DNA of 64,000 nt from Psilocybe cubensis. Lineage: Eukaryota. The DNA lies in NCBI GenBank assembly GCA_017499595.2, contig CM039008.1, positions 248,001-312,000 on the forward strand, given 5' to 3'. Positions 12,770-61,900 of this stretch are shown here, piece after piece (position 1 is the stretch's first letter; every line of letters starts with the position of its first letter). The notes under the pieces were generated by a model that saw only the letters and a program-made list of their open reading frames with translations, was not told the DNA's origin and searched no databases. The translations under genes were made by a program, and so were the position numbers.

Positions 12770-15700
12770 TTAATTCCCCAAATGTACGAATGGGACCCAT
12801 CGTCGGTATCCTACCCCACTGAGACGTAACTGGAGCGTAGCGTTGTGAAGCGCTTGTGCGGATTGGGAAATATCAGGCATCAATGGATTCGCTTTGTCAT
12901 CCACTGATTCGAAGAGTTTTGCATAGAACGCATCAGCAACTGTAGGCCCGTCCTCGTCGGCTATTTTCCTATCATCAGAGGGAAAATAAGACACCGTTCG
13001 TCAGGAAGAATTGCCTGATAAGAAGCATACCACATAGTAGCAACGACGCTCCTGTACCCAGAGAACAACATGCACGCGCCAATACTCATAGATTCATCAG
13101 GTACTGCCATATCCCCCATGGCTGTTTCACATGCGCAGAGAAACGCAAGAGAACCGTTGGGGATAGATTGTTGCATGATCTTCACAATGCTCAACTTCCC
13201 GTCGTGAACAAAAAGTGAACTGTCCAGAGGACTTGATGGATCCTGTATTCCATGGCATGCAAAGTGAGCAATAGATGCTGTTTGTAGATGAGAACAGATT
13301 GTGTCGATGGTAGCACCTGGGCCACCCGTAGATCCAAGTTCAATAATGCAGTCAGACGGAGCCTGTTTCTTGATTTTATGGAGTTCGATGGAGGCGGACG
13401 GCAACTCTGGATCCAACACAGCCAAGAACTGAAAAGGTACCCCTTCCGATGTTGTATTCTTCTTCGTCACTGAGGATAAGAGTAGACCAACTGTAGGTAT
13501 GTATGATGACACCAAATAGTCAGAGGTACACTGTAATGAACCTTGATCTAGATTGTAACATCCCGCCGCATGGATAGGAAGAAAAGAGAAAGGTCCAGAT
13601 GGACACCATTTTACACGCTGGGGTGATTGTAATTTCTAAGGTTCAAGAAACCAACTCAGCGTGCGTCGATGGTACAAAATAATCTACAAAACCGACCTGG
13701 AAACCAAGAGCGTCTATTATAGGCTTGACAAGGTCATCCCATAGGGTGAGTAAGACGTATTCAAATAGACTGTCGGACGAAGGCCTTGTTCTACGCCGAC
13801 CGAATGCGCCTTTCGATCTTAATCTGTTCAGCGCAGGTGATTTTTCCAGCATATCATCGGTCCAGATTTCCTGGACAGAGATGAATTGGTCCACTTCTCC
13901 TCTTAGATCAGGGGTTGGACCGCACGCCAACCTTGTTATGGTCACCAGGCTAAGCAAGGTCTCTTCTGAAAGATTATCAAGGCATATATAGTGGACTGTC
14001 TGAGCAGTCATAACAAGACATGCGCTCACGTCTTGTCCCGGCACAAGGAATATAATGGGACAGTCACTTGCCGCTCGTCGGAGAGATTCTATTCGTGGGG
14101 ATTGAAGGAAATCTTCGAACCCGGGTATGTTTCGGACCTCGTTAATACCTTTAGACCATTCATCATCAAGCTTTCTGAACTGAGCTTCTTGTGCCTCGAG
14201 CGACATTTTGGATTTATTATCCATAGCGGGGTCTGCAGAAACCGAATTGCGATACGATGCATGCTCTAATTCTCCTGCAAGTTGCTGCAATCTCTGCGCA
14301 AGAACGGGTGATTTTTCCTGTAAGCGATCAAAGGACGTGCGTAGATGTAGGGCTTGTGCCCAAAAAATGGCTCGTCCTCCCTCCAAGAACTCGACCGCCT
14401 GGTTAAAATTTTCCACCTTGATGGCGCACCAAGCTGCCTTCGAAGCTAGACCCGACCTGGAGGTTTGAATTGTGTCTTGTCGCGAGTATATATCAAGGCT
14501 GAGGGAAGCCATTTGCGACAAGCTGCGCAAAGCAACCTCATATGCCTCCAGTGCGGAAGTGTGTCCCAGAGCGTCTGCATGATACGACCAAGTGTCAGCA
14601 ATATTGTGAGCAGTAAAAGCACTATGAGAGGCGTTCTGAGACGCTGCCTTGAAGGAAAGCATCGCTGAATCTAGATATACCACCTCTTCTGTACGTAGGT
14701 ACGCAAGTACCAGAAGGTTCGCCAGATCCATCAACGATACGTATCGATGATAATGAAAAGGTGGATAAAGTTCAAGTGCTTTTTTATGCAAGGATGCGGC
14801 TTCGATGAAGTGGTCTTTTTCACGTGAGGTTTTGAATAAGCAATGTAGTGCATGTCCAAGATTGCTTAGATACATGGGTTGAAGAGGGCTGGGCAAAGGA
14901 AGGAGATCCACCGCTTCTCGGTATCGTTGCACGGCCTCGATGAGGTACTCTTGTTCGTTATCCAATTTATACTGATCCAGGAGTGTGCCTGAGAGACTGT
15001 TGAGGATGGTGGCATTGTTGGAACGACCAGAATCAGAAAGGTTTAGGGCCTCCCTGCACAGGGAAATTGCTTCCTCGAGTCTACCCCGAGTCGCTTCCTT
15101 TGATTTCGTGTGGGTTTTCGCCCCGAGTGCGTTAGCGAGGTTAATGAGAGAATACCCCCTGCTGGGGTGAGAACCAGAATGGCGCTGTAAGGCTTCTCGG
15201 AGTAACGTTACCGCCTCTTCATAATCGTTCTCAAAGCCGGTTTGTTCATAACGCAGCAGAAGAGTCTGTGCAAGGTTATTGACAAATCGCGATCGCATTG
15301 GGTGTAACGGTGTAAATAGTTCAAAGGCTTCCCTATAAGTCAAAATGGCTTGGTCCATAGTGGCTCGATCACCAGTTTGGCGAGACAGAGCGTTAAGGGA
15401 GTTTGCGAGATTGGTCAGATATTCAGCACGTCTGGGGTCTCGAGAGGGCATACGCGCGAGGTTATCCTTGTGCAATGCTATAGATTGCTCGAGATCACCT
15501 CTTTCGCCGTTAAGTTCGAACCGATACACGAGCGCAGTCGCCAAGTTGTTAATGGCCATATGTTCATTTGAACCAGCGGTCCCCGTTGGTTGCGCTCGTT
15601 CCAAATCTACGGCTTCCTGATACATTGCGATGGAGCTGTGAAGGTCAGCCTCTTGACCACTTAGATCATACCTTGCCATGATGGCATTAGCAAGATTGAT

Positions 15701-16753
15701 CGTGTATATCGGTCGATCGGGATGTGATTGAGGCAATGAATTAAACACCTGTCTATGCATGTCAATGCACTCCCGTAGATCCTCTGGTAATCCCATGCAA
15801 TCGAATCGAGTCTTCAAGGCGTGCGCAAGGTTGTGAAGAGGTTCGTATTTCTCTTCTGCATCCCCTGCACACAAAATTGAGCGGCGGAATAGAGAGATAG
15901 CTTCATTGAGATGCCTTTGTTCGCTTGTTTCTCCATACAAGTCGACCAAAGCGTCAGCCAGGCAGCGAACAGCATTTGAGAGATCTGGATGAGAATCAGA
16001 CTCAGTCGTTATAAGATCAACGCTCATCCTGTATTGAGATATTGCCTCTTCGAGATTTTCTATGTCTCTCTCCACTTCGAATCGGCTTTCGAGCGCTCGT
16101 GCAAGCCTACGAAGAAATATATGGCGCCGGTCAGCTGGCAAATGTGACATTTCCAATACATCTCTCCGTAAAGCAATACATTCATCGATGTCTCGGAGCT
16201 GTTCTGTGTGTTTGAAACGAGTTTGAAGCTGGGCAGCAAGGTTGTCGAGGAAAATATGTTGGTTACTGTCATTTGTAGGTACAAGATTGCGCGCACCACG
16301 CCCAACTGCAATCGATTTATCGAGATCTTCCAGTAGTCCGTTTTTACGGAAGCGGTCCTCTAGGGCACAGGAAAGATTGAATAGACCTTGGCGGTGCAAA
16401 GTACTGCTTTGAGGTATCTTGGAAAGGGCGAAGCAGTAAAGCGAAATTGCTCTGTTTAAATCGTCCACATCTAGTGACGCTTCGGATCTCATGTGCTCCG
16501 TACAGGCAGCATGGAACAGCTGGAATTGTATCTCCTCGTCGGCTTCCATGTTTCTCTATGATCTGGGTGAGACGCTTTGGCATTTCAAAAGAGGGGCACA
16601 ACCAACAAGGAAGTTGTAGTATTCTGCGCCATCATCAGCGGTGAGAGGCTCAGAAACGGACGTTCCATCCAAAGAAAGCGAGGACATGTGCGCTCCAAGG
16701 TCGCCATCGATATCTGTGCCCATCGTTGTATCGGAAAGCGCAATAGGCTGCAT
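12770..16753 (-). CDS. TPR-repeat / CHAT-domain (caspase-like protease) protein
   Basis: About 14 repeats of the type LxNLAxxLxxRF...DLEEAIxLxREAL, then WCPSGPFSFLPIHAAG, AHFACHG (catalytic His), AFLCACETAMG (catalytic Cys), SVVATMW and WVPFVHLG. Start is 16753 or 16723. Confidence 0.92.
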
Positions 16754-25387: not shown

Positions 25388-27204
25388 TTGTCGATGTACC
25401 GGGTGTGTTGAGCTCAAGCCGCTTGGCTGCTGCGGGGACGACAGATAATCAATAATGACGGTATGATTGTTCGCTCTGCTGGATGTCGACCCCCGTTTTA
25501 TAGTTTGGGAGGACAATTACAGGTGCGCTTTGGGTATAGTCTAGCGGGCTAGCGGGTTTTGTCTTCGTTCATCATTCGGGAGTCAAAGGTGACAGGTGCA
25601 GCTATACGATTTTGGATTTCCCTGGGGCACAGCTATGCTTGCTCTTCGATAGCTCACCTCGCATCCCTCTCGACACGAACGGGATTCAGACATCCACTCA
25701 GAGATCCACAGATATAAGAGGATTCTGTATGACTGCTAATATTCACATGTCACATCAGGAACGCAAAGTTGTGTATTTATTTCGATTGCATAGTCGATGA
25801 GAAAATGCTCAAGCAGTAATTTCATCAAACTTCACTGTCCTTGTCTTGCTTTAAATCGAGAGATTCAGTGCCATTCTCACTCTACAGTCACCCAGTCAGC
25901 AAATCTTTGTCCCTCCAGACAGAGACAGACAAACAGAAGAAATCATACCGATATGACCTTTGACTTCTCCACAACCTCCGCCAATGTCTTCTTCCCAACA
26001 TCCTTCCAGATTCTCCACGCAGTGAACGTGTGGCCCTGCTGGAAGATCTCTTCGACTTCCTCCAACGACCGCCCGACGGTCTCGGGGAACATGAAGAAGA
26101 TGTGGATGAAGGCGGAAAAGTTGAATGTGCCGAAGATGAAGTAGGCCTTCCATGCGATGGTGTTAAGGCCAGGCGGGACAGCAAAGGCCAAAGCTGTGTT
26201 GACTGCCCAGTTAGAGGCCTATCATTGGCTATTCAGTTGACGATTTTGAGATTCAGAGGTTAGTACTCACCGTGGCTAATGACACTGCCTTACCTCGCAC
26301 CTTCAACGAGTACTGAGATCATTTTACACAGTAAGCGTCTCAGAGAAGTCAGATGATACTCGGTGAATTTACCAGTTCCGCTGGGTACGTCCACGATACG
26401 GGTCCAATAGCCAACGCATAGCTAAGCTTCTCGGTTAGAAGAGTGTAATCCGAGTCGGCTAATATAAATAGACATGGCACCTGCAGACGAAGAGGTATGA
26501 GCAGACGATAACAGCCTTTGTCGCTGCCTCGTTCCCCTGAATTATCCAGACTGTTTTTCCTGTCGAGTCGGGAGTAGACCAGTGTCCGAACCGTCCTTGA
26601 ATCCCACCAACAAGGAACATCCAGAAACCCATCAATAAAGACCCCCATAGGAGCATGGGACGACGACCCCATTTATCGATGTAGAGGATAGCAGGTGCTA
26701 GAGATGAAAGTCGCGATAAGCCAAAATTATCTGATATGAGAAAAATCAGACAACTCGTACTTGTGAGAGCGACGTTCAGTACGTATTGAATGGACTGTTG
26801 ACATATGGTATTGGGAATTGAAGGCTAGGTGTGAGAATAGGGCGCCGACGTACCATCAGGGATTCGGGGAAAATCAGATACCACATGTAATCTGGCGTCG
26901 ACACTTATTTGTCCTTGTATGATAATATATTGATGCTATATACATTATACCATCTTATAATGTCGCATATGTGGAATCCAAATGATACCACAATTGCACT
27001 GATGATATCAGAAATATATAACCTTATATACCGCTTATACCTATGCTGCCAGCCCGATATTATAATATGATACGGAATAATGTATATACCAGTATTACAT
27101 TCTCATATACCACATGTAGCTACTTAGGATTATTTAGTAATGCCTCGGGTGGTCGCTCGAGCCTTGTAGTAGAGTACATGTTCATATTGAAAGCTACAGA
27201 CACT

Positions 27205-30200
27205 TTACAAATCATCAAAACCAAGATCGTCGTTATCACCAGTGTCATTGTCAAAGTCCTCGTTTGCCGAAAGACTATCAATATCTTCATTATCGGACTC
27301 CGAGTCATCAGACATGTCATCGGGACACCTAGGTCCATCATCTTCTGCTGCCTCAAGTTCTTCTGCAATGTCGGAAGGCTCTTCCAATTGAATTCTTCCT
27401 GCGGCTTCTTGGTGACCGATTCCAATGCCGAGATATCGAGATAGCATATCACAATCAACAAAGCTGTAAAATTGTGGTCAACACAGTGCTACACCAAACA
27501 ATTAGAAACGTACATGTTGACATAATAGTTCATCCAGTCATCAGTTTCCTGGGGAGGTCTGGCCTGAGTTGGGCCTGTTGTGTGCAATAATTCATTGGTC
27601 CGCCCATCAACAAAGGATGGAAGTAGATGACATCCACGAACAACCAAAGAAGGGTCCAAAAATCCAAACGCAAATTCATCGTCTTCTACGACAAATCCGA
27701 TTTTGGGAAGACATGCTAGTTTTCGACCAGATTTGTACCCAGGTTCTACCCCCAACCAACGTACCCACAGAAATTCCACTCGCTTTGGGCTGCAATCGCG
27801 TGATTTTGGCCCCGTGTGCTGAACATCTGCATGAAAAACACCTATCACAGACGCATACCAGAAGGGATGGGCACCTGGTTCAGTTTCTGGAGATAGCACC
27901 ATAACAAACGGATGGCTTCGTGTGCTGATGGTGTCATATGCCCGTCGCATGTCATACGTAGTATAATACGTACGCATAGTATTAACTCGAAACATTGTAT
28001 TGTTGATAAATCGAAGATTATTACGATCTTCATCATCAAAAAGAGAATCTGTGTCGTCGCCGTCAAATGTTCTTCCAGTCAATCGGCCTAGTAGGTGATT
28101 CTTGAGGAGATGCAAAAAGTTCTATAAACAGCTATATGAGCTATTAAAGTGACTTGAACACAAACAATGACTTACCTTCTTTGCAGGATCAGTATCATTT
28201 TGCATAAAAGCAAAAATAGGGACTGGCGTATTTCGTGATTTTGAGATATAGTGCGTATCTTGAAGATGCCCAGATACTGCTGCTTCTGCCCTTTCAGCCA
28301 TACAATCCTGTTGATAGGGCATTGTACTCTGCAAGGCCATCATGCGACTGTACTTTTGAGCAATCTGCTTGTTGGCATCCTTTTTGTTTGTCAATTTGTA
28401 CAATGATTTTAGTAAACGATGGGCAACTTCGCTCTGCATGATTATATTAGACGGATTGGGTACAATGCTATTCAAAACATACCAGTTGAGTTGAATAAGA
28501 ATCAGTGGTTCCAAAATTTCGAATATGTCGGACATAATCCCCCAAAAAATGAAACTTTGGTGTGTTCAGATTGAATTTCATCGAACGTCGGCTCAAAGGT
28601 GCTTTGGCCGGTGCACCATTTTCCACAGTAGATGTCTGTTTCTGTGCTTGACGACGTTGGCGTGCGGCAGTTTCTCGAGGAAGCTCAAAAGTTTCAAAAT
28701 TAGTACAAGTTACATCTCAAAACTCGCGCATTAATTTGCCAAATTCAAACGTGAGCTCGTCAAGCAATTTTAAACTCCCTTCGGTATGTATTCGCATCTT
28801 GGCCAAACCGTGCCATTCGGCCGTAGGGTACAAGAGCTTTGCGATTTGTCGATCATGTGGATCTGGAAACAGTCCTTCAAATATAGGAATAGCACACTAT
28901 AGTAGGTATTAGCATGGAATATAGATGTGTAAAATTTAAGATTCTTACTTGCAAAAGGTCTTCAAAATCGCGTGCCGCCAATTTTTTCATTTCCGATGAA
29001 TTTTTAGCAAAGTTACGTATAGTACCATTGCCAAAGGTCAAGACCTGGCGGTACCTGTCATATTTTGTATATTAATTATTAGTATTCAGGCATAGTCTGC
29101 ACACGTACCGTCTGTCTAGCTCTGTTACAAGTTCATCGGAACCCCCTCTAGCAGCATATAGTAATCTAATCAGATGAGTAAATAAGCTTTTCCAGACCCC
29201 GATTTCAAACTCATGCAGCAAATCAACGGTTAGCATATCAGATGGGTTAAAATCAAGGCCCAAACGCGCAACAAAAGCATTCTGTGACAAGCATCATTTT
29301 TTAGTTTTTAATTATTAAGAAAATATACGTACTTCTGTTGGAACACCAGAAAACGGCTTGAGGAGGCGATCAACAACTTCCGATTTTATTGAATGCCCAA
29401 GACGATAAATGGCATCGCGGGCGAGTGCAACTTGCTCGACAATGTATCTACGAACTGTTCTATTGTCAGTTCGGAGATTCTTGTCGCGTTTCAATCCAAG
29501 CTGGTCTAGCTTGGACTTTGGCACAAGACAAGTTGGACAAGGGCATAGGCCCTTATCTCTAATTGTGACCAATAGAACCCTACAACCAAGGTCCAATCAG
29601 TAAAGAACATACGGCAGCAAATAAAACCACACTTTTCTGGATAATCAGCCGAGTATGTGAATATGCGTGGATAAAATCGTCTTTCAATGCCGTCATGGCA
29701 TTTAATAACTATTCCATAACGGTATGCATGCATAAAGTCATCGTCCAATATAATCTTCCAGACACCGTGGATTAATTCGCGTCGACAATGTGTGAGCAGT
29801 TGTTGGCTTTGTGATTTCCATTTGGGGTGATTTTCCGACGCAAAATCTTTAAACGAGTCTGGAAGCTGTCGGAAAAGTAAATATAAAATCATAAGTAGAG
29901 TTATGAAGCATACGCACCGAAGGAATATATGCTAGATGATGCAATGCACCAGAGCCGGGCTGAGCACAAATATATTTAGACAAATTTCCTGCCATCACAT
30001 ATATGGGCCATCCTTTGGCATTCCCGAAATTGGTGTAGTGAGTTGCATCAGAGGCAATTTGAAGAGCAGCCACAACCTTTTCACGTTTACAATTGGGGTC
30101 GTCAGGAGGTAATGCACCACGACGCTGAATTGCTTCATTTTTGGCAAGAAAGGCATCAGAATTATAGAGTTCGGAAAAGATGCGTTCAGATTTGTTGGTA

Positions 30201-31226
30201 TGAGGGGATTGATGCCAAAGCTCAAATGGAGCATAATGCATATGCTTGGCTAGAGGACCCGTAAACATTTCAGTGATAAGAGAGGTGAAGGAGCGATGGA
30301 GAAGGCCTGGAACAAGATAAGGAAGAGGTGGACAGTGTGGGATTCCAGACGGCACCCAAATTTGTACACAGGTTTCTCGGAAATGAGCTCCAAGCCCCAA
30401 TGTAGCAATTGCCTTGTCCATTCGAGCATGCTCACGTCTAGCATCAAAACCAATCAGGTCCTGGGCATCAAAATTGGGTGCAAGTAAAACCGTATCAACA
30501 AGCTCGTTGATCTGACCAATAGACTTTGATGTTTGGCCATTATTAGCCCATTGCAGAAGGAGACGTACGGTAGGCTGAAGGTTGGATATATATGATGTGA
30601 TCCCATCCAGAATCGAGGATGATAGCTGCTTGAAGGTAGCTGGTTTGGATGCCAGGTCGTCTAGAGAAAGAAAAGAGTCGGAATCGTGATGTGGGCGTCG
30701 AGGGTAGTAGCGCCAAACACCAAACACATTGATTACAGATGTGAATCGGTCAAGAACATATAGAGTAATCCAACGTATAGCAGACAGTGGTAATGGTGGT
30801 AAAGATGAAACAGGTTCGGGCAGAGTTTGATTGTTCCTACGCGGATTTCTGTGTCGGCATGATGGGCAGCCAGACCAGGAGGGCATAGAGATCTCGCTAT
30901 ATGATACCGGGCTTGGATCGTGTGTGGAGGGGGTTGGTGAAGCGGGACAGATATCATCCATGGCACTGCTTTCCTGTGCATAAAATGGGTTGGTGCACTG
31001 TATTCACAACAAAAGTCAGGCAAGTGCAAGTATGATAGAAAAGGCTCACAATATCTCTATGTCTTTCACTGATGTGCCCGTTTGCCCAATTTCTCTTTAC
31101 TTGGCGAGAAAGTGACAGGGCCCTCTCGTTCATCTCGAGTACATGCACACACTTTGCTGCATGCTTAGATATGCTAGTTTCCCGACTATACACTGCTTTG
31201 CAAAGTGTAGCTGGGCATTTGTACAT
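27205..31226 (-). pseudogene. Plavaka transposase, multi-exon, with one premature stop
   Basis: ELYNSDAFL, SDATHYTNFGNAKGWPIY..GNLSKY, HHLAYIPSLPD, YPRIFTYSADYPEK, CPCPTC, VDLLHEFEIGVWK, AARDFEDLLQC, KFHFLGDY, FLWVRW, FGFLDPSLVVRGCHL; N-terminal CxxxxC...HxxxC. In-frame TGA at 28717-28719. Confidence 0.88.
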
Positions 31227-31624
31227 CGGTGTTCTGTTCTGGCTGCTCGCCTGAGGAGGTTTAATGCTTGAAATACGAGCAAGAAGGTAGGAACGATTTG
31301 GAAAAATGTGATAACGCGCAGTTGAGACGCGGGTCGCGCGTCACCGTCATGTGACCAAAGATGGCTGGCTGCTGCCCACCTTTTCTTTTCTGTCGCCGCT
31401 CCTTTCAACACTTTCTCTTCATTCTCTCCAGTACGACCCGCTTCCAACGGCCGAACGAAGAAACATATCACGGATTTGATGAACGTTATTCGGCATATCG
31501 TGCAGACGGTTGTAAAACATGGAGGCCAGAAAGAGAGAGATGAGGTCGCATCAGAATTGAAGGGGTTCTGGAAGAGGCAGACAACGAAAGACGAAGAAGG
31601 AACACGGGTGAACGGATGGGCAAG

Positions 31625-33170
31625 TACCCAATCCCGCCGCATCTGAACCGCGACGATCCCTCGCGGTCGTTGATGATGTTTGCCCATGCAAAGCCGCTGG
31701 GCGCGTACATGGGCTTTGCTGGCTTAAGATCCATGCGGCAAATCTGTTCGGGTACGATAAGGCCCGGTTCGACGAGCGTGTTCAGGTGCACCAGGACGGG
31801 ACCGTACAGACCTGCCCAAAGAAATCAGCTGGCAAGCCGCATCCTACCTCGCCAAACAGCTTCTCTCCACCATCGGAGACACATTCAAAGGCGCGAAGGG
31901 GATCCAGGACTGGCCTACCCTGTGTATGCGGCTAATCTCGAAATCTGTGCCGGCGAGTCGGTTGGGTGTGGTGGTGGATGTGGTGGATGGGAAGAACGAG
32001 TCGGTTGGGTGTGGTGGTGGATGAGGTGGATAGGAAGAAGTATGCAACGCTTGGGAGGAAGGAGGTGAAGCGTGAGCAGATGACGAGTGTGATTTGGACG
32101 ACGTTGTTGGGGCTGCCGATTGTTCAGCCGTATAGGAAGATTTCGACTACGGCTTTCCCTCCCAACTTTATTCACAGTCTGGATGCAACACACATGTTGC
32201 TGACTGCTATCAAATGTAATGTACGTTCTCTGTATTCAGGTCTAATTTTTACTGTTTTACTGACATGCATGGTATAGGACCGCGGGCTCACGTTTGCGTC
32301 AATCCACGACTCGTACTGGACACACGCGTGTGATATTGATACCATGTCCGAAGCAATTCGAGAGACATTTATCAGTCTTCACCAGTCTGATATTCTGAAC
32401 AAGCTGCAACAGGCCACGCCGCCTCAGGCACAGTGGAGTGACTCCCCTCGCCACCGCCTTAAGATCCCCGCGGCGAATCTGTTCGGGTACGATAAGGCCG
32501 GTTCGACGAGCGTGTTCAGTGGGCTGAGGAGCACTTTGAGCAAATGCGGGAGGCGGCGAAGAACCCGCTCGATGTACGTATTTTTTTTTCTTCTCAACCC
32601 GCATTATTTTCTCATTTTTTGTTGATGATTAGGGTATGAGATGGTGGCAAAAGGCAGACGACCCATGGCAATTCCTCGCTGCGTGCATTGAGCTCACCAA
32701 GTAAGGCTCCAACCGTTTAGTTTCCATTTAAATTTTATTACAAACTAAACAGAAACGGTAATAAACAGTTTACAAACGTTTATAAACGTTTGTAAACAGT
32801 AAGCTCGAGGGTGGCTACAAGGGCAGGCATTCAACAACGCATCATTTGTCCTAATGCGGCCGATTTGCCAAGGAAGATAATAGTCGGCACCTAATTGGTA
32901 CAAAAATGGGACCAAAACAAGAGTGCAAAATGAGTTAGTTTGGTGTAAAGAATAAAAGATGAATCATTTGATGTAATACGCACCCAATATTATCCAAAAA
33001 AGAGATATACTTAAGCACAAAAATCTGTTACCGTTTGAACCGTTTATAAACGTTTGTAAACTGTTTAGCAAGGCTTGTAAACTAAACGAAACGGTAAATG
33101 GTATATACCGTTTACAAACGATAAACAAACGAAATGGTTGGAGCCTTATCACCAAGGCACACGATGCACC
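31625..33170 (+). pseudogene. RPO41: Captured fragments of the mitochondrial T7-type RNA polymerase gene (RPO41-like)
   Basis: [115 protein letters not shown]; frameshifts, deletions and retained introns. Confidence 0.88.
32702..33148. mobile_element. hAT-like MITE (447 bp)
   Basis: TIR TAAGGCTCCAACC(G/A)TTT at both ends; 8-bp TSD TCACCAAG at 32694-32701 and 33149-33156; internal AAACGTTT-rich subterminal repeats. Confidence 0.88.
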
Positions 33171-33699
33171 AGGGGACGTGTAATGGACGGCTTTATGTCG
33201 CAGTAAACGCAGGACCAAGACCCCTTTTACGTGCCAAGTGACGAGCGCACTCATCCGTATGCTATTGACTCGACTCGACAGTATACACCTCGGGTGCCAT
33301 CGCACACTTACATAGCTGGGCCGTCGACAATGTCTCTTGTGCCATCACGGATGTGTCTGAGTTGAGTAGTGCTTTGTCCTCGTCGTCCGTGACGAGTAGG
33401 GGCGGTCAATTGTGTGAGTCGCTTCATGTTTGCTTTTGTTACTGCTAGTGCGAAGCTGAATGACCAACTCCGACACCAGGTCCACCAGGTCCTCGTCCTT
33501 GCTGGATGCGCAGAAGTCTTGTAAGCGCAGCGCCGCCTCTGCTCACTAGGTGGTAGTACACAAACTGTTGTATTTGGTTGCGCTGGACGGTGGTGAGTAA
33601 TTTGCTTCTCAAATTTCCAAATTCAACATTGTCTCATTCCAAAGCGTGGTCAGGCTACATTCCCTACAAAGTCCACCACCAAAACCAAAAGAGACAAAG

Positions 33700-34379
33700 T
33701 TTCGAGGGACTCGCATTTCTACAAGGTGGGGAAGTGCCTGTGTCACAGCGGATAGGCGATTCGGACGTTGTAAGTGCTTCTTTATTATGTCTTTTCAACA
33801 CTTGTTTGTTTACTTGGTACGTATCCAGCTACACAGTGCAATCAATTATTGTTCTGTTGGCCTTGTGCCACCTTTGCTGCTGGCTCATCCACCACCTCAC
33901 AACTGCCACTGCCCTTGTTATTGATCTCGTTAAGTTGAGTGTTTGGTTTGTCGTGTCCGATGTCTGAATTAATTTGCGTACAGATCATTGTTGAGGCCTC
34001 AACTGCCCTGGCCGCCATTTTTCGCTGCGCCCGCTGTGTGATAAAATTTTGCCATTCGGCCTCCCGCTCAGCAGCAGCAGCGCGTTCTTTTGCCCTTTCC
34101 TCTGCAGTCTGCAGAGTATGCTTTAGCGGCAATAACAAAATTCTGCAGATCAAAGGCACGTACCTTTTTTATCTTGACTACTTTTGGTTCATACTGACAC
34201 CAGCATTCATCTGATTCCGATTCACATTCAGAATGGCTGCATTCAACCTCAGATTCTTCGGAGGAGCTGTCCGTGTCGACCCGAGCTGGTTGTGGTGCTG
34301 GCTTTTCCGGAGTATCAGCAATAAATGCTAATGGTATTCCGACTATTGTAGGTGGTGCTTCGTTGGTATTTTCTAGCAT
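33700..34379 (-). pseudogene. Degenerate hypothetical gene inside the transposon (acidic and coiled-coil segments)
   Basis: MLENTNEAPP...DSSSEESEVECSHSECESESDEC, then AEERAKERAAAAEREAEWQNFITQRAQRK in another frame; splice-like signals are present but downstream frames are interrupted. Confidence 0.3.
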
Positions 34380-34803
34380 AGTAGCTGAAGAGTTTATAGC
34401 TGTAGCTGTTGTAGAACTACAGAAGCAGTAGGTTTGAGTTAAAAGAACATTTCAGCCGCTGTTCTTTAAATTTCTGTTGAAAAAGGCATATAATTACATT
34501 ATAATGTGCATATCATGTGCTAGTGTGACAGTCACTGTTTGTTTCGTGTTTTCCAGGCCGTCATTCTCTTGTTCTCAACCACACACTTTCCAACTAGCAT
34601 TCTTCGCATTTGTCAATGCTGGCTCAGGAATATTCTAGCCAGGACATACACTGATCAGTGTTGGCAATGCAGGGCATGCACGTTCCTCAAAATGTAGCCA
34701 TTTGTACCCCTTTTCATCCGCTCGTTTTTTGATTTTGCCTCATTTTTCTGCCGTGCATGCTTTTCCCCCTCTAATAAGGCCAAGGTATGCATAACCTTTC
34801 TAT

Positions 34804-36745
34804 ATGTCTTCTTACTCGTACCAACCTGGTGGCGCATTTCATCCAGGTGCACAAGGATCTTCGTCCCATGGCCGTGTCACTGGCACACAAGAACAACCTA
34901 ATGTGGTGACTCAGCATGGCCATAATGCACCTACCTATCCAGTGGGATTTAATGGTGGGCCTCCGTATACACAGAATGAGCGCAATCATGCACTGGGTGG
35001 AGGTATGTTTGAAGTCACACTTCTCATATATCTTGATTTACTACTTAGATTTAGGTATGGCAACTTTGGATAACTCATTCTATCCAAGTCATTCCCAGCC
35101 TCAGATGCCAGCATCCACAACCGCTTCAACACCTGGCTATCAGGCACGATATGGCCATCACCTTGAACCCAATGCGTCATCTTCATCAATGTCATCCGAC
35201 ACCACTTCTCAGAATGAAATCTCAGCCCCTGACACTTCAACACTTCAGACACAGCTGGCCTTTTATAAGCGTCGGATTGAAGAGTATGAAATGGGCGATG
35301 AAGAGTGGTCCCGGAAGTCTAAAAAGGCAAAGACAAGGTGAATTTGTTGATAACCAAACTTTCTGTTGCAGTCATAGCATTCATCATTATAACTTTTAGG
35401 GAGAAGCCCCCCGAGCGATGCTTTTGAAAGGCTGTCAGCCTTTATGTGAGCGCACAAGAACTGTATCGAGACTGGAACAATGATTATTTAGAAAGGAATG
35501 GTATGGCTTTGGCAAAGTTTAGGGATGTTGACACCAAACGAAAGTATGTTTCTTTTTTGTTTATATTATTAATACTTATATTCTCTTTTGATTCTAGCTT
35601 CGATCGTAATGTTTCTAGCTTCAATAAGCTCTTAGAATACATTCCAAGGCTTCAAATGATGATAGACGGAGATGCTAGCAGCCAAGAGATAAGGGAATAT
35701 CTACACAAGGTATGTGATTATTTGATGAAATGTGAATGACTAAATGTCATTTTTCTACAGATTGATCAGGGTGGAAATGCAGCCCGCTCAGACGATTGCA
35801 ACCACATCAAGGAATTCCTTAGAGACTTCCTCAATGCCGAGCACCGCCCTGAGGTTTTGTTTACAAAAGAACGGACTGGACGTGGTGTGCAGAATGACAT
35901 AACCGGTAAATATCTTTGTCCGATTCATTACAACTGGGATGACCCCAGGTAAGTTGCTTATTTTTTTCTTGTACTCTATCTAAGATTATTGATTAGTGTT
36001 CGCACACGTATCCGTGCGGGTGATATTATGGATCCAAAATTCCCAATTTTTGTCAATTATTATCTTCGGTTTTTGTATCCTGATGGATATGAGCTGCCGC
36101 CTAATGGTAGAGTCAAGCATTTGTTTTTACGAAGTCTGATCTTGGTCAAGGTATGTACTCTACTTTTGTTTCTTTCTAATTCTTATATTAGTCTGTCTAG
36201 GTATGGTGCTATATTTTTACCTCACCAGGATCAGCCAAAGCCATTATCAAAAATCCTAATGGCGGACCTCCTATTCGAAATCGAGCCTACGCTCCATCAA
36301 CCAAATCGACTAAAACAAATGTTGCCCGCTTGATAGAAATGACCAGTGTTACAGCCCATAGCATTGCCTATACTGTTATCATGGTATGTTTACTTCTTTT
36401 GTCTTTCGCATTCACAGCATCTTAAGTTTCAATATAGACGGGCTTCAACCTTACGGATGCTTTGTTTTGGACCTCGAAATACAATAACTTCAACTTCCAT
36501 GCACTCTATGATTTCATCGTGGACTATTTCCGGGAATCAACACCAGAATCCGAGGATCTTCTGCGATGGTGGAATAGGTACGAGGTTCTATGATAATTTT
36601 CTATTTTAGCTTAATATATTCTATTAGCATGGTTTTTCCTAATGGTGTCGGCGCTGCTATTGACAGAACGGAAGCATCTACAAATGCTTCTTATTCACTT
36701 CTAGAAGCTTCTCGTGCTACCGCTTCAACTACTTTTTCAACTTAA
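34804..36745 (+). CDS. Multi-exon DUF6698-like protein carried by the transposon
   Basis: GNAARSDD, RGVQNDITGKYLCPIHYNWDDP, FLRSLILVKVWCYIFTSPGSA, NVARLIEMTSVTAHSIAY, LYDFIVDYF and LLRWWNSMVF match my recollection of this Agaricomycete TE-associated family. Confidence 0.7.
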
Positions 36746-36784
36746 TTCTTCTTATCTTGTAATCGACCAGTAGTTGCTCGCTCG

Positions 36785-37325
36785 CACGGCGGGCAAAAGT
36801 GCTGACTAGTCAGCCTGGGAGTTGGTCTGACCAGTCACGTGACCATATCGTGACGCGTTCCGTGACGAATCAACTGACCAGTCAGGAGAGGTCACACAAA
36901 TGTTGTCACGCTGGTTAGTATTGGTAAATGAGTTCAGTAACATAAGATTAAATGGGAATAAACCATTGTCTTCCGAAGCACTTTTACTGAGGAAAAGCAA
37001 TGAATGAATTGGATATTTCTTGTGTTTGGTTGAAATTTGGTCATTATTCAAACAAATGGACAATTAATAGATGTTGTACCAAAATTGTGTCGATGCATGC
37101 TAGATATCCTCACCAAGATTCATGAAAGAATCAAATAATGTAAGTCTGGGGCATAGAAAAGAGATCCTCTGTTCTACAATCAATGAGCGGAATTACAGAA
37201 ACTTAGCAGTGTGACAATAAATGTGTGACAGCTACATGACTAGTCAGGTGACTAGTCAGCACGCTGGTCAGGTGACTGATCAGACCAACTCCCAGGCTGA
37301 CTAGTCAGCACTTTTGCCCGCCGTG
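36785..37325. mobile_element. CACTA-like MITE (541 bp)
   Basis: TIR CACGGCGGGCAAAAGTGCTGACTAGTCAGCCTGGGAGTTGGTCTGA (46 bp perfect, about 61 bp with 2 mismatches); 3-bp TSD TCG. Confidence 0.9.
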
Positions 37326-39489
37326 TCGAAATGTCATTTTTTTAATCTGGTCATCTGATTTTTCAATCACGTGCTGTCTGTCAACCAACCAGTAAAACGC
37401 CAGATAACGGGCATCAGTTGTGGTAAGCTAGCTGAAGGTATAATGTAAATCTAGTGGTATATGTTATATATTCTAAGATATGGATACTATAATGAGGTAT
37501 AACTATATTCCTTCCTGTAGCATCATGTCAGAATTATATCAACATTATACCACAAAATACCATATGCCATCAAATTATCATTTTTTGCAGTTCAGTTTAA
37601 GGCATGGTATAATATTATACCACCCCGAGACCACATATACCACATTACCCCTACTTACAGTGCTTATATTGATCATATCATACTTTCCCCGAATCCCTGA
37701 TGACATCAGCGACCAGGATGGTCCGGGTTCCCGTTATCCCTGCACTTTTGAAGACATAGACAACGTAGTACCTGCATTGAATAGTTAATTCTGATACATA
37801 GTGGGAAGGGAAGAATCACGTACATCATCACGCTCATTCCAGAAAGTTGAGACCACATTCTCAGACTCATGCCAAGCATGACACGCCTGGGGTTATTTCC
37901 TTTAAAAAGATCCATGTATGACTTGGCGCCCTCCGCACGCTCGAGATAAACCTAGCAAAAGTTGTATTAGGAAGGAAGATGTATTTTAAAAGCTTCTCTG
38001 CCCTGACCTGCTGTCTGATTTCCTCGAACTCGAGGACCACAAGCTCGGCTTCCTTGTTTCCCTTACCTTGCAAGTCGGCAAGAACTTGCAGGGCTTCTTC
38101 TTTACTACAAATCCATCAGCTTGGAATTTACATTTTTACAGACATATAAAGACGTACTAACCATGATCACAAAGCCACCGAGGGCTTTTGGGGAATGCAG
38201 TCATCCCCAGGCTTAAAATTATCGCTGGAATCATCTGTAGACCCCATGGGAGCCGGAAAGAGGCGACTCCATGAATGTAAGAGCACCCAAATTGGACAAA
38301 ATATTGGATGAGCATCCCCCAGGTAATTGACCATTGCTGCAAGGATACGATGCGACCCCTAATGGAGGGTGCAGTAGTTTCGGACTGATAAATGGGAACC
38401 ACTGCACTGGAGAGGCCAACTGAGAAGCCTGATATAATGTGACCGACCACGAGCATGCCACGGTCCTTATAAATGGTGTATTTCTAGTCATTTTCAAACC
38501 TACAAAGCGAAAAAGATGATACGTACCACCAATGCACATTGAAGAATTGACCCAATAATCCAGAAGATACCTGCAAGAATGATTGTCTTTTTTCTTCCTA
38601 ACCTATCTGCCAGATGCATCACAGCAAGGGATCCGATAAATGATCCTGCTGGCATGGCGGCGACAATGCCTCCCTGAGCAGCTGGACTGGGCTAGTCATA
38701 GATAACATGTGGGTTAGTATGTATCTTAGAAATCCAACTACTCCAAAATCCAACTCACAAATTTAAACGTCTCGAGATATGAAGGATTCTTTTGTTCGTA
38801 TCTCGGAATCGATAATACGATCATAAATCTGGGTAAGACACCCTTACCGTGAGGACTCCGGACATTGATGTAATATCTAGCCCGGCCAAACTACCACCCA
38901 GACACGCAAAGGACCCCACAATGTACTATGAACTACTGTTTATTATGGGATAATAGACAGAAATCAAGTGTATTCGTACCGGATTGGAGGCGATTCTGGC
39001 ATTGTATGTGGTGAACGTCTCAAATAAAATCAAAAGTTAGTCCAGAAGAGAAAGTCAAGTGTATAGCCTGTGCTAACCCCCATAGTTGCGCCGTGTCTTG
39101 AAGACAAAATCTACCAAAGAAATATTGTGGTGAGATATCCACTTGTCCTCCATGGGTCCATAATTTATAGCCATCTTTCTTCGAACCGAGTGCAGGTATG
39201 TGTCTATTTCTGTTAGGCCGTTGAAGGCCGTTTGATCTCCGAAATTAAACTTAAAGGTCAGCAGATCGTATCACTGGTGAGAGGAAAGATGGATTAGACT
39301 GCGCAGATGTGTTTAAGGTTATTCTCGTTCTTCGAAAGCCATAAACATGAGAAACCTTGGTGTTCCATTTTCTTTGTGCATGTACTCGAGCAGGAGTGTG
39401 CCGTCTGGAGGCACAGAACCTCAGTGAAATGCATCAGAATCATTCTCTTCATGGAGAATGAGTATCAAAGACTCTCCCCAGCTGCGCCC

Positions 39490-43770: not shown

Positions 43771-44019
43771 GAAAGAAAGAGGGACTCAAAGACTTTGAAT
43801 TTCAAAACCGGAGTCTGATCGACGAAGTCAACCCTGGGCCCGTTCGGTCATGTGACTTAATTTTTTTTTCCACACTTGCGGCGTTGAACGTCTTGCCGAC
43901 ATTGACTGCAACGTCGAGAATAGGCCAATTGACACCCCGATATCCACAAACCCTGGAGTTATAGCATCTGGGACACTTTCATGACTATACCTTCACATTG
44001 ACTCCATAATTTGTGACCA

Positions 44020-46816
44020 ATGTCGTCCATTATCTCCCAATGTGTACATTCTGCGCGGATTAGCTCCAGGTGCAGCTGTTTTGCAAGAGCAGGGGCGGGA
44101 GGAACGTCTTTCTTCCATAGTTCACCTGAACTGTACTATGGTATGTACTTATTTCTATCCTATTCTATTCGTTATATTCTTTTTGTTCGCGAATCTTGGT
44201 TTATAATTGCAGCACGTTCTGACAATTATTTTTTACGCCCACCTGTACATCCAGATTCTCGGAGTTCTTCTTCGTCTTCTAAAAGACAGAACAACGATTT
44301 TGGCCCCTCCGTCAGCAATATGGGCGGTGACCGCAAAGGAAAAGACCGACGCCGCAGCGGAGGCTCGATGATGCTGCCACCTCGTCCATCAGTCGGGGAC
44401 GGAGGCGGGAAGGGCAAGGGAGGTGCAAGCGCCAGTCGCAACCCCGGTCTGGCACCCGTCCAAACTGTTTCGGGACGTGTAGGTCGTGAGACGCGAACTT
44501 CAACCAAAAGCCAATTTGCACGAGACTCGGCACCACACGTAGGCCAGCAACCACGGAGCGAGCAATGGGGGAGGACGATACGGAAGTGGGACGAGGACGA
44601 GACGTCACAGCGAACATTTGGAAAGGGGAAAGGGAGGACCATTTCTATGGCTTCGTCTATCGCGCCAGGGAGGGTGTTCACCGCTGCTGACGCGGACGCT
44701 GGCGTAAACGCGTTCGACCTTGCCGCAGACGACAAATGGAAAACTGATTCTTCGCGCGGGACGTTATCCAGGAATCGCCGCTCTCGCGAATACGACGAAG
44801 AGGACATGGACGCGGAGCAGCCGGATTATCATGTGGGCTTGGAAAACGAAGAAGAGTTCTTCCATCCACCTGGGGAGGTGTCGAACGTGAAGGGTGCCAA
44901 AGCAACCTCTGCGTCGTCGTCAAAAAGTGTAGCAATCGCTACGCGGTTCACCTCGCCGCCTCTGATACCGGGCTTCATTAGTGCACTGGAGGAGATGTTT
45001 GGCAAGGACGCTAAGCCGACGCCTGTGCAAGGATTGAGTCTCTCGTGGGTCATGGATTGGGTTTCGAAACAGGCGAATGTGAAGGAGCTGCAAGTTGTCG
45101 GAGAGGCAGGTTCACAACCCTGGAAAGCCCCCACACCACCCGGTGGATGGCGGGAGTTCCTGCTCGCAGCCGAAACAGGCTCCGGGAAGTCCATCGCATA
45201 CCTACTCCCAATGCTCCAATCCCTCAAGCAATCTGAACCCTCATTCGTCCCCTACTCTCCCCCAAAGGGCGCCGAGTCCAAGAAGAAGGAGTACAGTCCG
45301 CGCGCGGTGGTTCTAGCGCCCACGCACGAGCTCTCGAGGCAGCTCGCTGGATTTGCCAAGGACCTATGTCACTTCCCCGATACCCGTCTCAAGGTGGTGA
45401 CAGTATCGCGTGCGAACGTCCCGAGTACCGTCGGCTCTGGTGTCTCTACGATGCCTATGGAGCAGTGGCGAGAGAGCAAACGAGGAGAAAGCGCACGCAA
45501 GATGACGATGATGCAAGGTGTAGTATTTGATACCCATGGCAAGCAGGTAGACGCGGTGTCTGAGGAAGGTGCGGGCGAAGGGAGACCTCGGGGACATATG
45601 GAACACGGTGCAGATGTTATTGTGGGCACGCCGATGAAGCTTCTTGAGATGGTGCGAGGACGTGGATGGGACAGGATCACAGAGCAGCACCAGCAACAGC
45701 TTGAGCTGCAGGACGCTGCTGCAAAACAATCTCAAGACGAAGACGGTGAGTCCGAGCAGAAGCAGTTGCGTAGAGGTCGTGACAGGATCCCACACTTTGG
45801 GACGTGGAGACCCAAGTCGGAGATGGGCCTCGAGAATGTAGAATGGGTCATTGTGGACGAAGCCGATGTTCTTTTCGGTGAGCTTTCATTATGTTTTAAA
45901 ATTTTGGATTTAGTCAAATTAATCAACAATTATGATACGCTCAGATCCTGATTTCCAAGAGACGACAAGGCTTTTCCTGGCAGATGTCAGTGCAGCACGC
46001 GGTTACCCTATCCCATTTTCTCCTCACCTCCTCCCACCTTCACCTTCCTCCCCGTCCACAGTATCCTCACTATCCACAACTCTCGCACCCGTCAAATACC
46101 CTTTCAATCTCCTCCTCACCTCCGCAACTATCCCAACTTCCCTCAACACATATCTGACTCAGGCACACCCCTCTCTCCTACGTCTCGCTTCGCCAAATCT
46201 ACATAAACTCCCAAAGACCCTACAGGTTGAGTATGTCGCGTGGTCTGGTGGGAACAAATTCGCCGATATCCTCAGACGGCTGAAAAGAGTATGGGCCGAA
46301 GATGCGTCTTCCGCCCACGTGCACGGGAAAGGACAGGATATGCTCAGCCAGGTTGTTATCTTCTGCAACCGCAGTTCCAAGGCAGAGGAGCTAGGCGAGT
46401 GGCTGGAGGACCAGAGCGGCAATGGGGGCGGTGTGAAAGGCGTCGTCGTCGTCACTGGCAAGGGAGGACGCCAGCGTGGAAATAATAAGCACTTGGAAAG
46501 CTTCCTACGTGCGAGGGGCAGGAAAGCAGCGAATCGATCTACATCCAACGAGTCTTCGTCCGGCTCCGCTCCCTCTGAAGCCTCCCCGAAAGTGCTTATC
46601 ACCACTTCCATTCTTTCTCGTGGCCTCGACTTCTCCCCGAATGTCAAGCATGTGTTCATCATCGATGCGCCCAGAAACATGGTCGACTTCGTGCACAGAG
46701 CCGGCCGAGCTGGGAGAGCAGGTATGAAAGGCCGTGTTGTGGTGTTCGGGAAGATGAAAGGCAGAGGCAGCAAGAAGGGTAAGGAGATCAGGGGCAGAGT
46801 CGCTGGATTGATGTAG
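44020..46816 (+). CDS. MRH4: Mitochondrial DEAD-box RNA helicase, MRH4-like
   Basis: PTPVQ, LAAETGSGKSIAY, LAPTHELSRQ, GTP, IVDEADVLF, SAT, IFCN, LSRGLDF and HRAGRAGRAG; presequence-like N-terminus. Confidence 0.85.
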
Positions 46817-58932: not shown

Positions 58933-61900
58933 TCAATCCGTCAAGATACCCTTGACGCCCCCACTTTGCGTCCTACCGCCGTCTCTCGCACGCGCAGTGT
59001 GCATGCGCTTCCCACCTTTCGTGGACACGTTCCTTGAGCGATCATTGGGGTACTGGTGGTGGTCAGGGTAGGAAGACGATGATGCAGAAGCGGAAGACAT
59101 GGCCGGATCGTGATCATGTTCATGATCCGCGTTCGTCACGGGGAACGGATAGTGTTCCTGCTGCTGCTGCTGGGGGTAAGGGTACGAGGATGGTTGGTGA
59201 TGAGGAATACGAACAGACGGCACAGGCACAGGTACCTGTTTTCCCGTCTTTGTCTTCTTTGTCTTCGTCTTCTCCGACTTGCCTCCCGACGACGACGACG
59301 ACGACTTACCCTTGGCAAGCGGAGGCACGTTCGACGAGGACGGTGGGGACGGCGAGGGCTCCTTCGCCTTCGCCTTGTCTTTGGTCGACGCTGGAGTAAC
59401 AGGTGCAGGCACGCGTATCGACGGCGGGCCCGTCGGCGTAGGCAACGACGGGTCTATCCAGTCATCTTCGATGTCGTCGCCTTCCACTTCCTCTGCTTCT
59501 TCCTCGCCATCGCGCGGTTCATCTACCCCTTCCTCCTCTTCGTCTTCTTCGCGGAACGAAGTAGCACCCGCGCCCTCAGGGCGGAATACAATTTCGTCGT
59601 CATCCTCTGCCCTCTCCCTTCCAGGACCATTATCTGATTTACCCTTGCCTTTCAGCCTCGCAGGTCTCTCGATGTTGATAATGTCAAAGCGCGAGTTCGG
59701 ACCAGGAGTAACAGGGTCCACCGGGTCTTCTTCAGTATCAATCTCCTCACCTTCCGCATCGCCAGCTGTGCGCCGACGGTCGCGTGCCGATGAATAGGTA
59801 TCGAAGAACCTCTCGCTCGAGTCGCTCTCACTCTCCTTGCCACGCAGAATTTCCACGCCATCTTCTTCCTCATCTTCGTTGATGTCATTGTCGTCGTGGA
59901 CGTCATCGTTATCGTTGTCGTCCAAGAGGTCGACATCGTCCGGCTCGGAGATGGACTCCAAGCCCATATTATCATCCGAGTCAGAGGGCCAGGTCGGGGG
60001 TTCGTCTTGTAACGAGAATATCGTTCTCGGAAGCTGCAACAAATCATCAGTACCAGTCGGAATAAATCACAAAAAGCGCGATGAAGTCTGATTAAAAAAG
60101 GAAGTAAGAACTCACCTCTGCAACCCTCCTCTTGAAATCCCACCACTCTGCCTCATCGCGACACAAGAACCCAATCAACATGCTTGGATCCAGACCACTC
60201 ATCGGCATCTTGCGCACTCGCTCGCAATGGAACGTCTTCAGCTCAGCAGCACTATACGACAAACAATAATGCTGCTGCACACGGTCCAACCCACCTCCAA
60301 CATTATTCCCCAAGCCGGCGCCTTCGCCTGTGGACGTCGAGGCAGAGGTGGACGCAGAGACGGACTGGCTTCGACTCGCTGTACCAGCTGCAAAGCTTCT
60401 GTGATGCTGCTGATGCTCCGCGTTGCCCATCGCCGGTGATGACGGCTGACTCACGCCTGCACTGGCACTCGCAGACCTCCATCTTCCATGCTGACTGTGT
60501 TGCTGATACGAAGGCGGTGGGCTGCGCTCTCTGTACTGTCCCTGTTGCTGATGACCAGTATTCGAATACGAGTATGAATGCGAATCGGTATAGACCGAAG
60601 ACGATCCCTCCGATTCCACCGTACCCGTATCTGCAGACGACGACGAGAATTGGTGCTGCAAAGGGGACGGGGACACTGGCGCGTGGTATGAAAAGTTAGA
60701 CGAGCCCGTGCGCACAGAGGAAGGAGATGCGGGTGTGGGCGTTCGGTATGGCGTCTGCTGCTGTTGTGGCTGGGGCTGGTATGTCGGGTGCGAGGAGCTG
60801 CTGGGGGTTGATGACCTCTTTGTCTTGGTGTTCGACGTGCTGGCATCGCGATCCGAGTCGGGCGTCGGCTGTCGATCAATATGCTGGGTATCTGGTGGTG
60901 GAGGTGGGCGCAGTGGAATGGCAGGCCGTGGATTATGTGGGTCGAGATAAAACAGGTTGTCCGCCTGCGATCCTACAAAATAGTATGACGAACTCGGACG
61001 GCCGCCTGCAATACCCACAGATTGCGGGAAAGTGTACAACATCTAACCCAAAGATCAATTTCGACTTTCCCTATAACATGGGACAGCAAACGCACCTTGA
61101 TACTCTCATAATAAATTGGATTAACACCCTCAATGCCCAACCTTATTCCCAACAAGAGTAGCACCGGCCTCTCACCCCACGTCGTCGCATGCCTCCTTCG
61201 CGGCGTCCGTGAATTTCCTCTCCCAGCTTCCCCTTCCACGCCACCGAAATGCGACGCCGCAAACACCTGCGTCTGGTACAGAGTCCCGTCTGTCGCAACA
61301 GCAACTGCCAGACCACACTCCGGGAAACTAGCAACAAGCTGCTTGATTGCACCCGCAGCGACACTGGGCCCGAACCACTGTCCAACGTCGGTGCCAAGCT
61401 CTTTACCTGCGAGCGCCATGCGGTGCACGCTGAAGGGCGCAAGCGGGGAGGGAGTATCAAGGAACCAGGTAAGGATCTGCACATAGGTTGCGTAGTCAGC
61501 AGTGAGAACTGGATGTGGTGGTCTGCGCCAGTCTGAGGAAAACAATGCCGTTAGATGTGCTAACGATTGAACCAAAAAAAAAAAAACCACTCACCTCTGC
61601 CAAGATGCACAACAACCAGCGCATTCGCAAGCACACTCTGCCCCGTGCGGAGCATGCAACCCCAACCCGAGTCGCTGCTCCACGTCTTCTCGCCACCACC
61701 CGTGACCCAGTTCCACGGGCGGGAGCGGAACGCGGTCGTCGCTGGACTATTCGCTGCGGACCCGCCTGCTCCTTGTCCACCGTTCCCGCTCCCATTACCA
61801 CCTCCTCCGGAACCTAAACTGAAACTCTGTGTACTAGCACCTCCGTGGTACCCAGCAGTAGCATGCAGAGGTGGCGGTGAACAGAGCGGCAGGTCACCCA

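Follow-up and report, generated by a model that had tools for sequence, protein, structure and literature searches.

The window analyzed here is a stretch of 64,000 nucleotides of Psilocybe cubensis DNA (contig CM039008.1 of assembly GCA_017499595.2, positions 248,001 to 312,000 of the forward strand; all coordinates below are those of the window). It contains a PlavakaB-type DNA transposon of 10,849 bp at 26854-37702 that is polymorphic between strains. Within this element lies a patchwork of about 2.5 kb made of fragments of host genes, among them about ten patches of the host gene for the mitochondrial T7-type RNA polymerase, RPO41. We consider it probable that this inert patchwork was made inside the element by template-hopping repair, was then transported with the element, and has since decayed.

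The RPO41-derived DNA spans 31599-33187. Inspection of the sequence alone had led to the original prediction of RPO41-like segments between 31625 and 33170; their identity was borne out by Pfam, by PDB sequence matches and by tblastn, while the true span proved slightly wider. Five open reading frame (ORF) pieces from 31612-32639 were compared with Pfam and all five match RNA_pol (PF00940), four of them over the curated cut-off (E values of 5.2e-07, 5.7e-08, 9.6e-20 and 7e-20) and one under it (16.8 versus 22 bits). For the piece at 31936-32277, all 11 of the 11 PDB sequence matches are mitochondrial RNA polymerases, the best being yeast Rpo41 (6ymv_A, E 8.3e-14). The patches were mapped by tblastn of the full-length P. 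cubensis enzyme (P0002, 1339 residues) against the window, combined with direct reading of the sequence. The tblastn blocks comprise residues 663-670 at 31601-31624, 746-800 at 31625-31785, 953-1008 at 31797-31964, 1005-1151 at 31996-32412 (with a 27-residue gap), 780-818 at 32458-32573, and 819-841 at 32633-32701; the same search found RPO41 similarity nowhere else in the 64-kb window. The parental genes were assessed through the P. cubensis proteins P0002 and P0174 (the latter introduced below) and through contigs and reads from four public runs (X1, X5, X10 and X12), which were aligned to 26000-38500 of the window at 80% likeness.

The RPO41 patches all lie on the plus strand and form two collinear series. 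The first opens with residues 663-670 (NTGERMGK) at 31599-31624, found by tblastn; the parental contig aligns from 31599, and its letters before that point are unlike the window and encode the parental upstream residues. Residues 746-800 follow at 31625-31785 with one frameshift; relative to this patch the parent has 6 nt inserted at 31649 and is missing 1 nt at each of two places. Next comes a micro-patch of residues 857-862 (VHQDGT) at 31786-31803, identified by direct reading, which overlaps the following patch (aligned to the parent from 31797) by 7 nt, CGGGACC. That patch, residues 953-1054 at 31797-32146, holds a 43-nt tandem duplication (31954-31996 and 31997-32039) whose copies are 95% alike, with 2 differences in 43. 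The parent is without this duplication, as parental contigs and reads join 31953 to 31997 and so skip 43 letters. Residues 1055-1081 are missing, and here the parent carries extra letters at 32146/32147; the series continues with residues 1082-1106 at 32147-32220, a retained parental intron at 32221-32277 (57 nt, GT..AG), and residues 1107-1151 at 32278-32411. This last patch, supported by both Pfam and tblastn, includes FASIHDSYWTH, which we take to be motif C of the T7 polymerase; beyond 32411 the parent goes on with letters coding for EFLTRYAM. Compared with the parent, the first series is without four blocks, residues 671-745, 801-856, 863-952 and 1055-1081. We assume VHQDGT to be the start of motif A and residues 863-952 to be the block with motif B.

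A filler of 46 nt at 32412-32457, with no match to P0002 or P0174, separates the two series. The second series then jumps backward to residues 780-818 at 32458-32573, again with one frameshift, and the parent is continuous across this jump (parental joint 31763 to 32498). It proceeds through a second retained parental intron at 32574-32632 (59 nt, GT..AG) to residues 819-841 at 32633-32701, is interrupted by a miniature inverted-repeat transposable element (MITE), and resumes past it at 33157-33162 with two further residues (AH), giving residues 819-843. The last patch, at 33158-33187, corresponds to approximately residues 857-866 (HQ-GTCNG), is shifted by one base and was recognized in translation; it is the weakest of the patches because it is short. 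The last 63 nt of the residue 746-800 patch and the first 62 nt of the residue 780-818 patch are two copies of one segment (LKI..DERVQ; 31723-31785 and 32458-32519), 93.65% identical over 63 positions with 3 substitutions and 1 indel. The duplicated segment near 31723 and 32458, the permuted order and the loss of the stretch between QPYRK and AFPPNF had all been noticed in the sequence, and the tblastn map, which puts that loss at 27 codons, and the repeat alignment agree with them. Two X1 records align from 32451 onward with about 59 unlike letters ahead of that point, and may represent another arrangement or copy of the residue 780-818 patch in the X1 strain.

The parental transcript is represented by a spliced contig of 3165 nt (X12 record 8), which aligns to the patches in parental order. 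It leaves out 57 nt at 32223/32281 and another 63 nt at 32574/32638, and at both places the window has GTACGT...AG; the intron limits given above were set by the GT-AG rule. Because both parental introns are kept in the fragments, the source must have been DNA or unspliced sequence, in agreement with the capture at the DNA level that had been proposed from the intron-like signals.

At the nucleotide level the patches are approximately 94% identical to the parent, with 36 differing letters in 578 over four aligned pieces, plus 8 gap letters. In translation, the fragments and P0002 disagree at 19 of the 305 aligned residues. Using a crude outgroup rule to polarize these residue changes, 14 are derived in the fragment, 4 are derived in the parent and 1 is ambiguous, and the fragment-derived changes fall mostly at sites that are invariant in eight outgroups. 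Hypermutation resembling repeat-induced point mutation (RIP) was considered as a source of the 6% divergence and rejected, since only 5 of 14 base changes, inferred from the nearest codon, are C>T or G>A. The divergence looks like ordinary neutral decay. In a protein search over the query region, P. cubensis P0002 scored 120 bits with 67% identity (the deletion being counted), versus 100 bits and 55% for P. cyanescens, and the fragments have many residue states in common with P0002 against P. cyanescens. Sequence comparison identifies the gene of the P. cubensis lineage itself as the donor, and not a plasmid or phage polymerase; the host origin suspected at the outset is thus upheld, P0002 being closer than P. 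cyanescens and the introns matching the host transcript. At position 31649, where parent and fragment can be told apart, X5 contains only the parental form (24.3 of a depth of 24.3) and X1 contains both (parental 23.5 of 52.1).

The element that carries these fragments is delimited by terminal inverted repeats (TIRs) of 19 nt, the left at 26854-26872 on the plus strand and the right at 37684-37702 on the minus strand, which match each other exactly. The 19-nt pattern has two matches in the window against 0.02 expected, and none of 100 shuffles reached two. The termini read CATCA..TGATG and are bounded by AC on either side (26852-26853 and 37703-37704), the two copies of a 2-bp target site duplication (TSD). 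A joint from 26851 to 37703, skipping 10851 letters, is present in one X5 contig and in X10 raw reads (12+12, with 20 start points); two letters at the joint fit either side, and the unoccupied site has a single AC. The segment 26854-37702 is therefore an insertion that some strains do not have, which places the fragments inside a transposon, as predicted, and supplies the limits that the prediction did not give. Contigs from X1 have zero differences in the flanks but break approximately 30 nt inside each element end, which indicates that the element family is multicopy. The PlavakaB lineage has been described as having 5'-CATCA..TGATG-3' termini and a TSD of 2-3 bp (PMC12730594). Our element combines three PlavakaB features, a Plavaka transposase, CATCA..TGATG termini and a 2-bp TSD, and its assignment to PlavakaB is a match of transposase type, termini and TSD to the sections of the published description used here (PMC12730594).

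The Plavaka transposase gene, which contains introns, occupies 27208-30961 on the minus strand and is collinear with a 1090-residue P. cubensis protein, P0121. It matches Pfam PF18759 (E 2.5e-13 and 8.5e-09), and tblastn of P0121 against the window covered residues 1-1090, with a first exon 93.7% identical. An in-exon TGA at 28717-28719, at the position of Arg661 in P0121, interrupts the intact frame expected of an autonomous copy, so that this copy is probably non-autonomous and reliant on other copies to move. Part of a second gene of the element lies at 35740-35952 on the plus strand and matches DUF6698 (Pfam PF20414, E 1.4e-11); this region is also present in a related element copy in X5. 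DUF6698 is a family of unknown function that is here plainly borne by a transposon.

The RPO41 patches form part of a larger copy-specific mosaic at 31384-33869 (plus strand, approximately 2.5 kb), situated between the region upstream of the transposase gene and the second gene. Contigs of the related X5 element match the window at 28293-31383 (95%, 158 other letters) and at 33870-36005 (97%, 60 other letters), and between 31383 and 33870 they carry unlike sequence. Directly upstream of the RPO41 patches, at 31461-31598 on the plus strand, are three collinear patches of host PUF6 (Pumilio family member 6), covering residues 138-148, 162-185 and approximately 281-294. These patches have 13 and about 95 codons missing between them and are joined directly to RPO41 codon 663. 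The P. cubensis protein P0174, named PUF6 by its source, matched at E 4e-7 and aligned by tblastn to 31461-31574 and 31556-31609; a single-copy contig in X1, X5 and X12 maps to the PUF6 patches with a joint at 31493/31496. Downstream, the stretch at 33188-33351 (plus strand) matches a third, unnamed transcript (X12 record 9, 2804 nt), from which it departs at 10 letters, besides 24 gap letters. No Pfam family was found in the ORFs of 31130-31723, 31326-31646 and 33207-33967.

The ends of the mosaic show no inverted repeat (best local score 20, with 200 shuffles reaching up to 28). Helitrons have 5'-TC and 3'-CTRR ends, insert between A and T, and have no inverted repeats. Helitron-borne capture was rejected, as the mosaic borders fit this pattern at no offset and the carrier has TIRs and a TSD, and a nested Pack-type carrier was rejected because the mosaic ends are without an inverted repeat. 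The lack of an inverted repeat and of Helitron-like ends leads us to regard the mosaic as cargo and not as a nested element. The 8-nt word CCACCTTT occurs at both mosaic borders (31376-31383 and 33868-33875), and could be a repair microhomology, an 8-bp duplication or chance.

In the explanation that we favor, a break or an excision gap inside the element would have been repaired by DNA synthesis that strayed from its proper template. Moving from one ectopic gene to another, in some cases where a few bases were shared, the synthesis would have taken up pieces 18 to about 350 nt long, and the same episode would have added the 43-nt tandem duplication and the 46 nt of filler. The element would then have brought the patchwork to its present site, probably mobilized in trans because its own transposase gene has a stop codon; the hAT-like MITE would have inserted into the patchwork afterwards. 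The patchwork would since have decayed neutrally, encoding no working polymerase. Template switching during repair is the likeliest process in our judgment, and is favored by the PUF6 patches, by the 46 nt of filler and by one junction at which 7 nt possibly overlap. Gap filling with template switching has been discussed for Pack-TIR formation (PMC8277862), and work cited in PMC6379663 invokes the same gap-filling model for deletion derivatives of Ac, Mutator and P elements. The timing is consistent with this sequence of events. Divergence is approximately 5-6% in all three comparisons, between the 63-nt copies, between the tandem copies and between patches and parent, which suggests that the rearrangements are about as old as the capture. 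The element flanks differ from the empty allele at 4 letters in 852, and set against the approximately 6% divergence of the patches this argues that capture is older than insertion at the present site.

Several observations weigh against this explanation. Only one copy of the element with the mosaic was seen, and transport after capture is argued from the divergence arithmetic. Microhomology was assessed at a single junction, and on one side of it. Codon 800 is Gln in both 63-nt copies and Glu in the parent, a pattern that one capture and a later internal duplication explain no less well than two separate copying passes would. In addition, X10 contains both the empty site and the mosaic, the depth within the element not being a clean half, and the empty allele could in principle reflect precise excision.

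The alternative that survives best, which we regard as possible though clearly less probable, is that one contiguous piece of RPO41 was captured and became scrambled when part of it was duplicated in tandem and several internal stretches were deleted. An order of a-b-d-e-f / b-c-d is what a duplicated a-b-c-d-e-f would be expected to leave after deletions, the 63-nt patch and the VHQDGT patch occur in both series, Gln800 is common to both 63-nt copies, and the 43-nt tandem duplication proves that local duplication happened here. However, this course of events calls for six or more deletions, each arising independently and removing 39 to about 270 nt, all inside 2 kb and in the time of approximately 6% divergence. 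The PUF6 part is equally finely patched, and the differences between the 63-nt copies (3 substitutions and 1 indel) and between the tandem copies (2 in 43) make all the rearrangements about as old as the capture.

It is rather unlikely that the mosaic formed in place after insertion, as filler in break repair, and never transposed. A single mosaic locus was seen, the depth of the fragment form in X1 is approximately that of a single copy (52.1 minus 23.5 at 31649), and the transposase gene of this copy has a stop codon, all of which speak for such an origin. Yet the patches are approximately 6% diverged while the flanks differ by 4 in 852 from the empty allele, and a clean empty site with one AC is what would be expected of a locus that the element had never entered.

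A foreign donor is very improbable, whether the element came by horizontal transfer with the RPO41 of another species or with a polymerase of plasmid or phage origin. A few residues, for example Ser762 and Asp1107, do side with P. cyanescens against P. cubensis, but the P. cubensis protein is the best full-length match by far (120 versus 100 bits), 14 of the 19 differences are specific to the fragment and lie mostly at conserved sites, the introns coincide with those spliced from the host transcript, and all 11 PDB matches are mitochondrial enzymes. Scarcely credible is a working short polymerase-like gene, although UniRef P0001 models a 299-residue 'DNA-directed RNA polymerase' at the locus, since that model joins out-of-frame stretches and residues 863-952 and all of the N-terminal two thirds are missing, or an assembly chimera, since four runs of one study contain 0.76-0.79 of the sampled words and raw reads of another study have the window form in 21 of 22 reads at 31649.

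Gene-fragment capture is textbook knowledge for the CACTA, MULE and Helitron elements of plants, and to our knowledge complete Plavaka structures were described only in 2025. The present element resembles the published PlavakaB elements of Agaricomycetes (CMCT clade) in its Plavaka transposase, CATCA..TGATG termini, 2-bp TSD and large size, and in having another gene next to that for the transposase; those families are described by the presence or absence of a TET/JBP dioxygenase gene, whereas this copy holds a mosaic of host fragments, a feature that goes unmentioned in the sections of that account used here (PMC12730594). No TET/JBP gene turned up in this copy, although no dedicated search was made for one. 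Like Pack-CACTA/Pack-TYPE transposons and soybean Tgm-Express, ours is a CACTA-related element with merged fragments of several unrelated host genes, introns included (PMC6379663). Pack-TYPE elements as described there are, however, short, non-autonomous, without a transposase gene and found in plants, while this element is fungal and has a full-length, stop-bearing transposase (PMC6379663). The element carries host-gene fragments between its ends, as Pack-TYPE elements do, and has also kept a transposase gene; with regard to mobilization with cargo, the insertion is polymorphic and one mosaic locus was seen. The model proposed for Arabidopsis Pack-TYPE elements, in which DNA between two neighboring insertions is captured, leaves a fine patchwork from separate genes such as the present one unexplained in the form set out in the sections drawn on here (PMC6379663).

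Animal Pack-TIR elements, considered together with FoSTeST, are alike in having host sequence in a TIR element, a few bases of microhomology at breakpoints, short de novo insertions and mostly single copies (PMC8277862). The present case differs from them in having many more switches per insert, with at least 12 patches from 3 loci and a backward jump (PMC8277862). In Dothideomycetes, histone H3 has likewise been copied as a housekeeping gene into a fungal DNA transposon, in that case hAT elements, but there the whole coding sequence is present, in tens or hundreds of copies that are often hit by RIP (PMC6710886). Here, in contrast to those cases (PMC6710886), the fragments are scrambled, apparently single-copy and show no RIP-like bias. 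The literature searched, which did not extend to the family sequences in the supplements of PMC12730594, contained no description of host gene fragments being captured by Plavaka elements or in mushroom-forming fungi. Gene-fragment capture as such is known, and there is now a clear case of it in the recently described Plavaka family.

Two MITEs are nested in the element. The one that interrupts the second RPO41 series, at 32702-33148, is multicopy, 447 bp long and has inverted ends; its perfect 8-bp TSD (32694-32701 and 33149-33156) suggests the hAT superfamily. In X10 its depth is 217+214 versus 22+19 for the flank, approximately 10-fold higher, and reads break off exactly at its two limits, 332 of them at 32702 and 369 at 33148. 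The second, at 36785-37325, is a multicopy CACTA/EnSpm-like MITE of 541 bp; its inverted ends are 61 nt long, its termini read CAC..GTG, and its TSD is 3 bp (TCG). Its depth in X10 is approximately 450, joints of the empty form were found from 36781 to 37326 and from 36778 to 37326, and other copies of the element are without it.

The element sits inside a sugar-transporter gene of the major facilitator superfamily (MFS) on the minus strand, at 25943-26824 and 37706-38691, with Pfam Sugar_tr positions 47-201 to the right of the element and 296-452 to its left. Strains that bear the insertion accordingly have an interrupted allele of this gene. The insertion falls on the word GTACGT of the minus strand, which may be a splice donor. 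Elsewhere there is an expressed MFS paralogue that is approximately 82% alike (records 2, 7 and 11). Other host genes in the window encode a CHAT and TPR (NLR-like) protein at 12961-16555 on the minus strand, a DEAD/Helicase_C helicase at 44017-46816 on the plus strand, and an ATG4-like peptidase C54 at 60092-63482 on the minus strand.

The mosaic represents residues 663-670, 746-862 (in part), 953-1054 and 1082-1151 of the 1339 residues of RPO41, about a fifth of the protein. The RPO41 patches carry at least three frameshifts and fall short of a working enzyme of this type, which would need its N-terminal domain and the palm motifs A, B and C in one continuous frame. The frameshifts and the missing motif B block indicate that the patches are inert, and from its sequence the mosaic likely has no polymerase function. 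The 299-residue P. cubensis protein P0001 is a gene model of 31616-32701; three of its four aligned pieces are 100% identical to the window, and the fourth, which reads through the first intron, is 82% identical. P0001 is best read as an annotation artefact on a transposon-borne pseudogene. The single putative RNA run contains parental spliced forms only and is uninformative on transcription of the mosaic.

The general significance of these findings is modest, since the phenomenon itself is well known in plants. They flag a public 'DNA-directed RNA polymerase' model as a transposon-borne pseudogene, and the strain-polymorphic insertion provides a natural pair for testing both template-switch repair and trans-silencing of an essential gene. 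As a speculative candidate for such an effect, to which we give little weight, silencing directed at the transposon, by small RNAs or 5-methylcytosine spreading over 31461-33187, would dampen RPO41 and PUF6 in insertion-bearing strains. If this were true, natural strains of P. cubensis would differ in mitochondrial transcription capacity.

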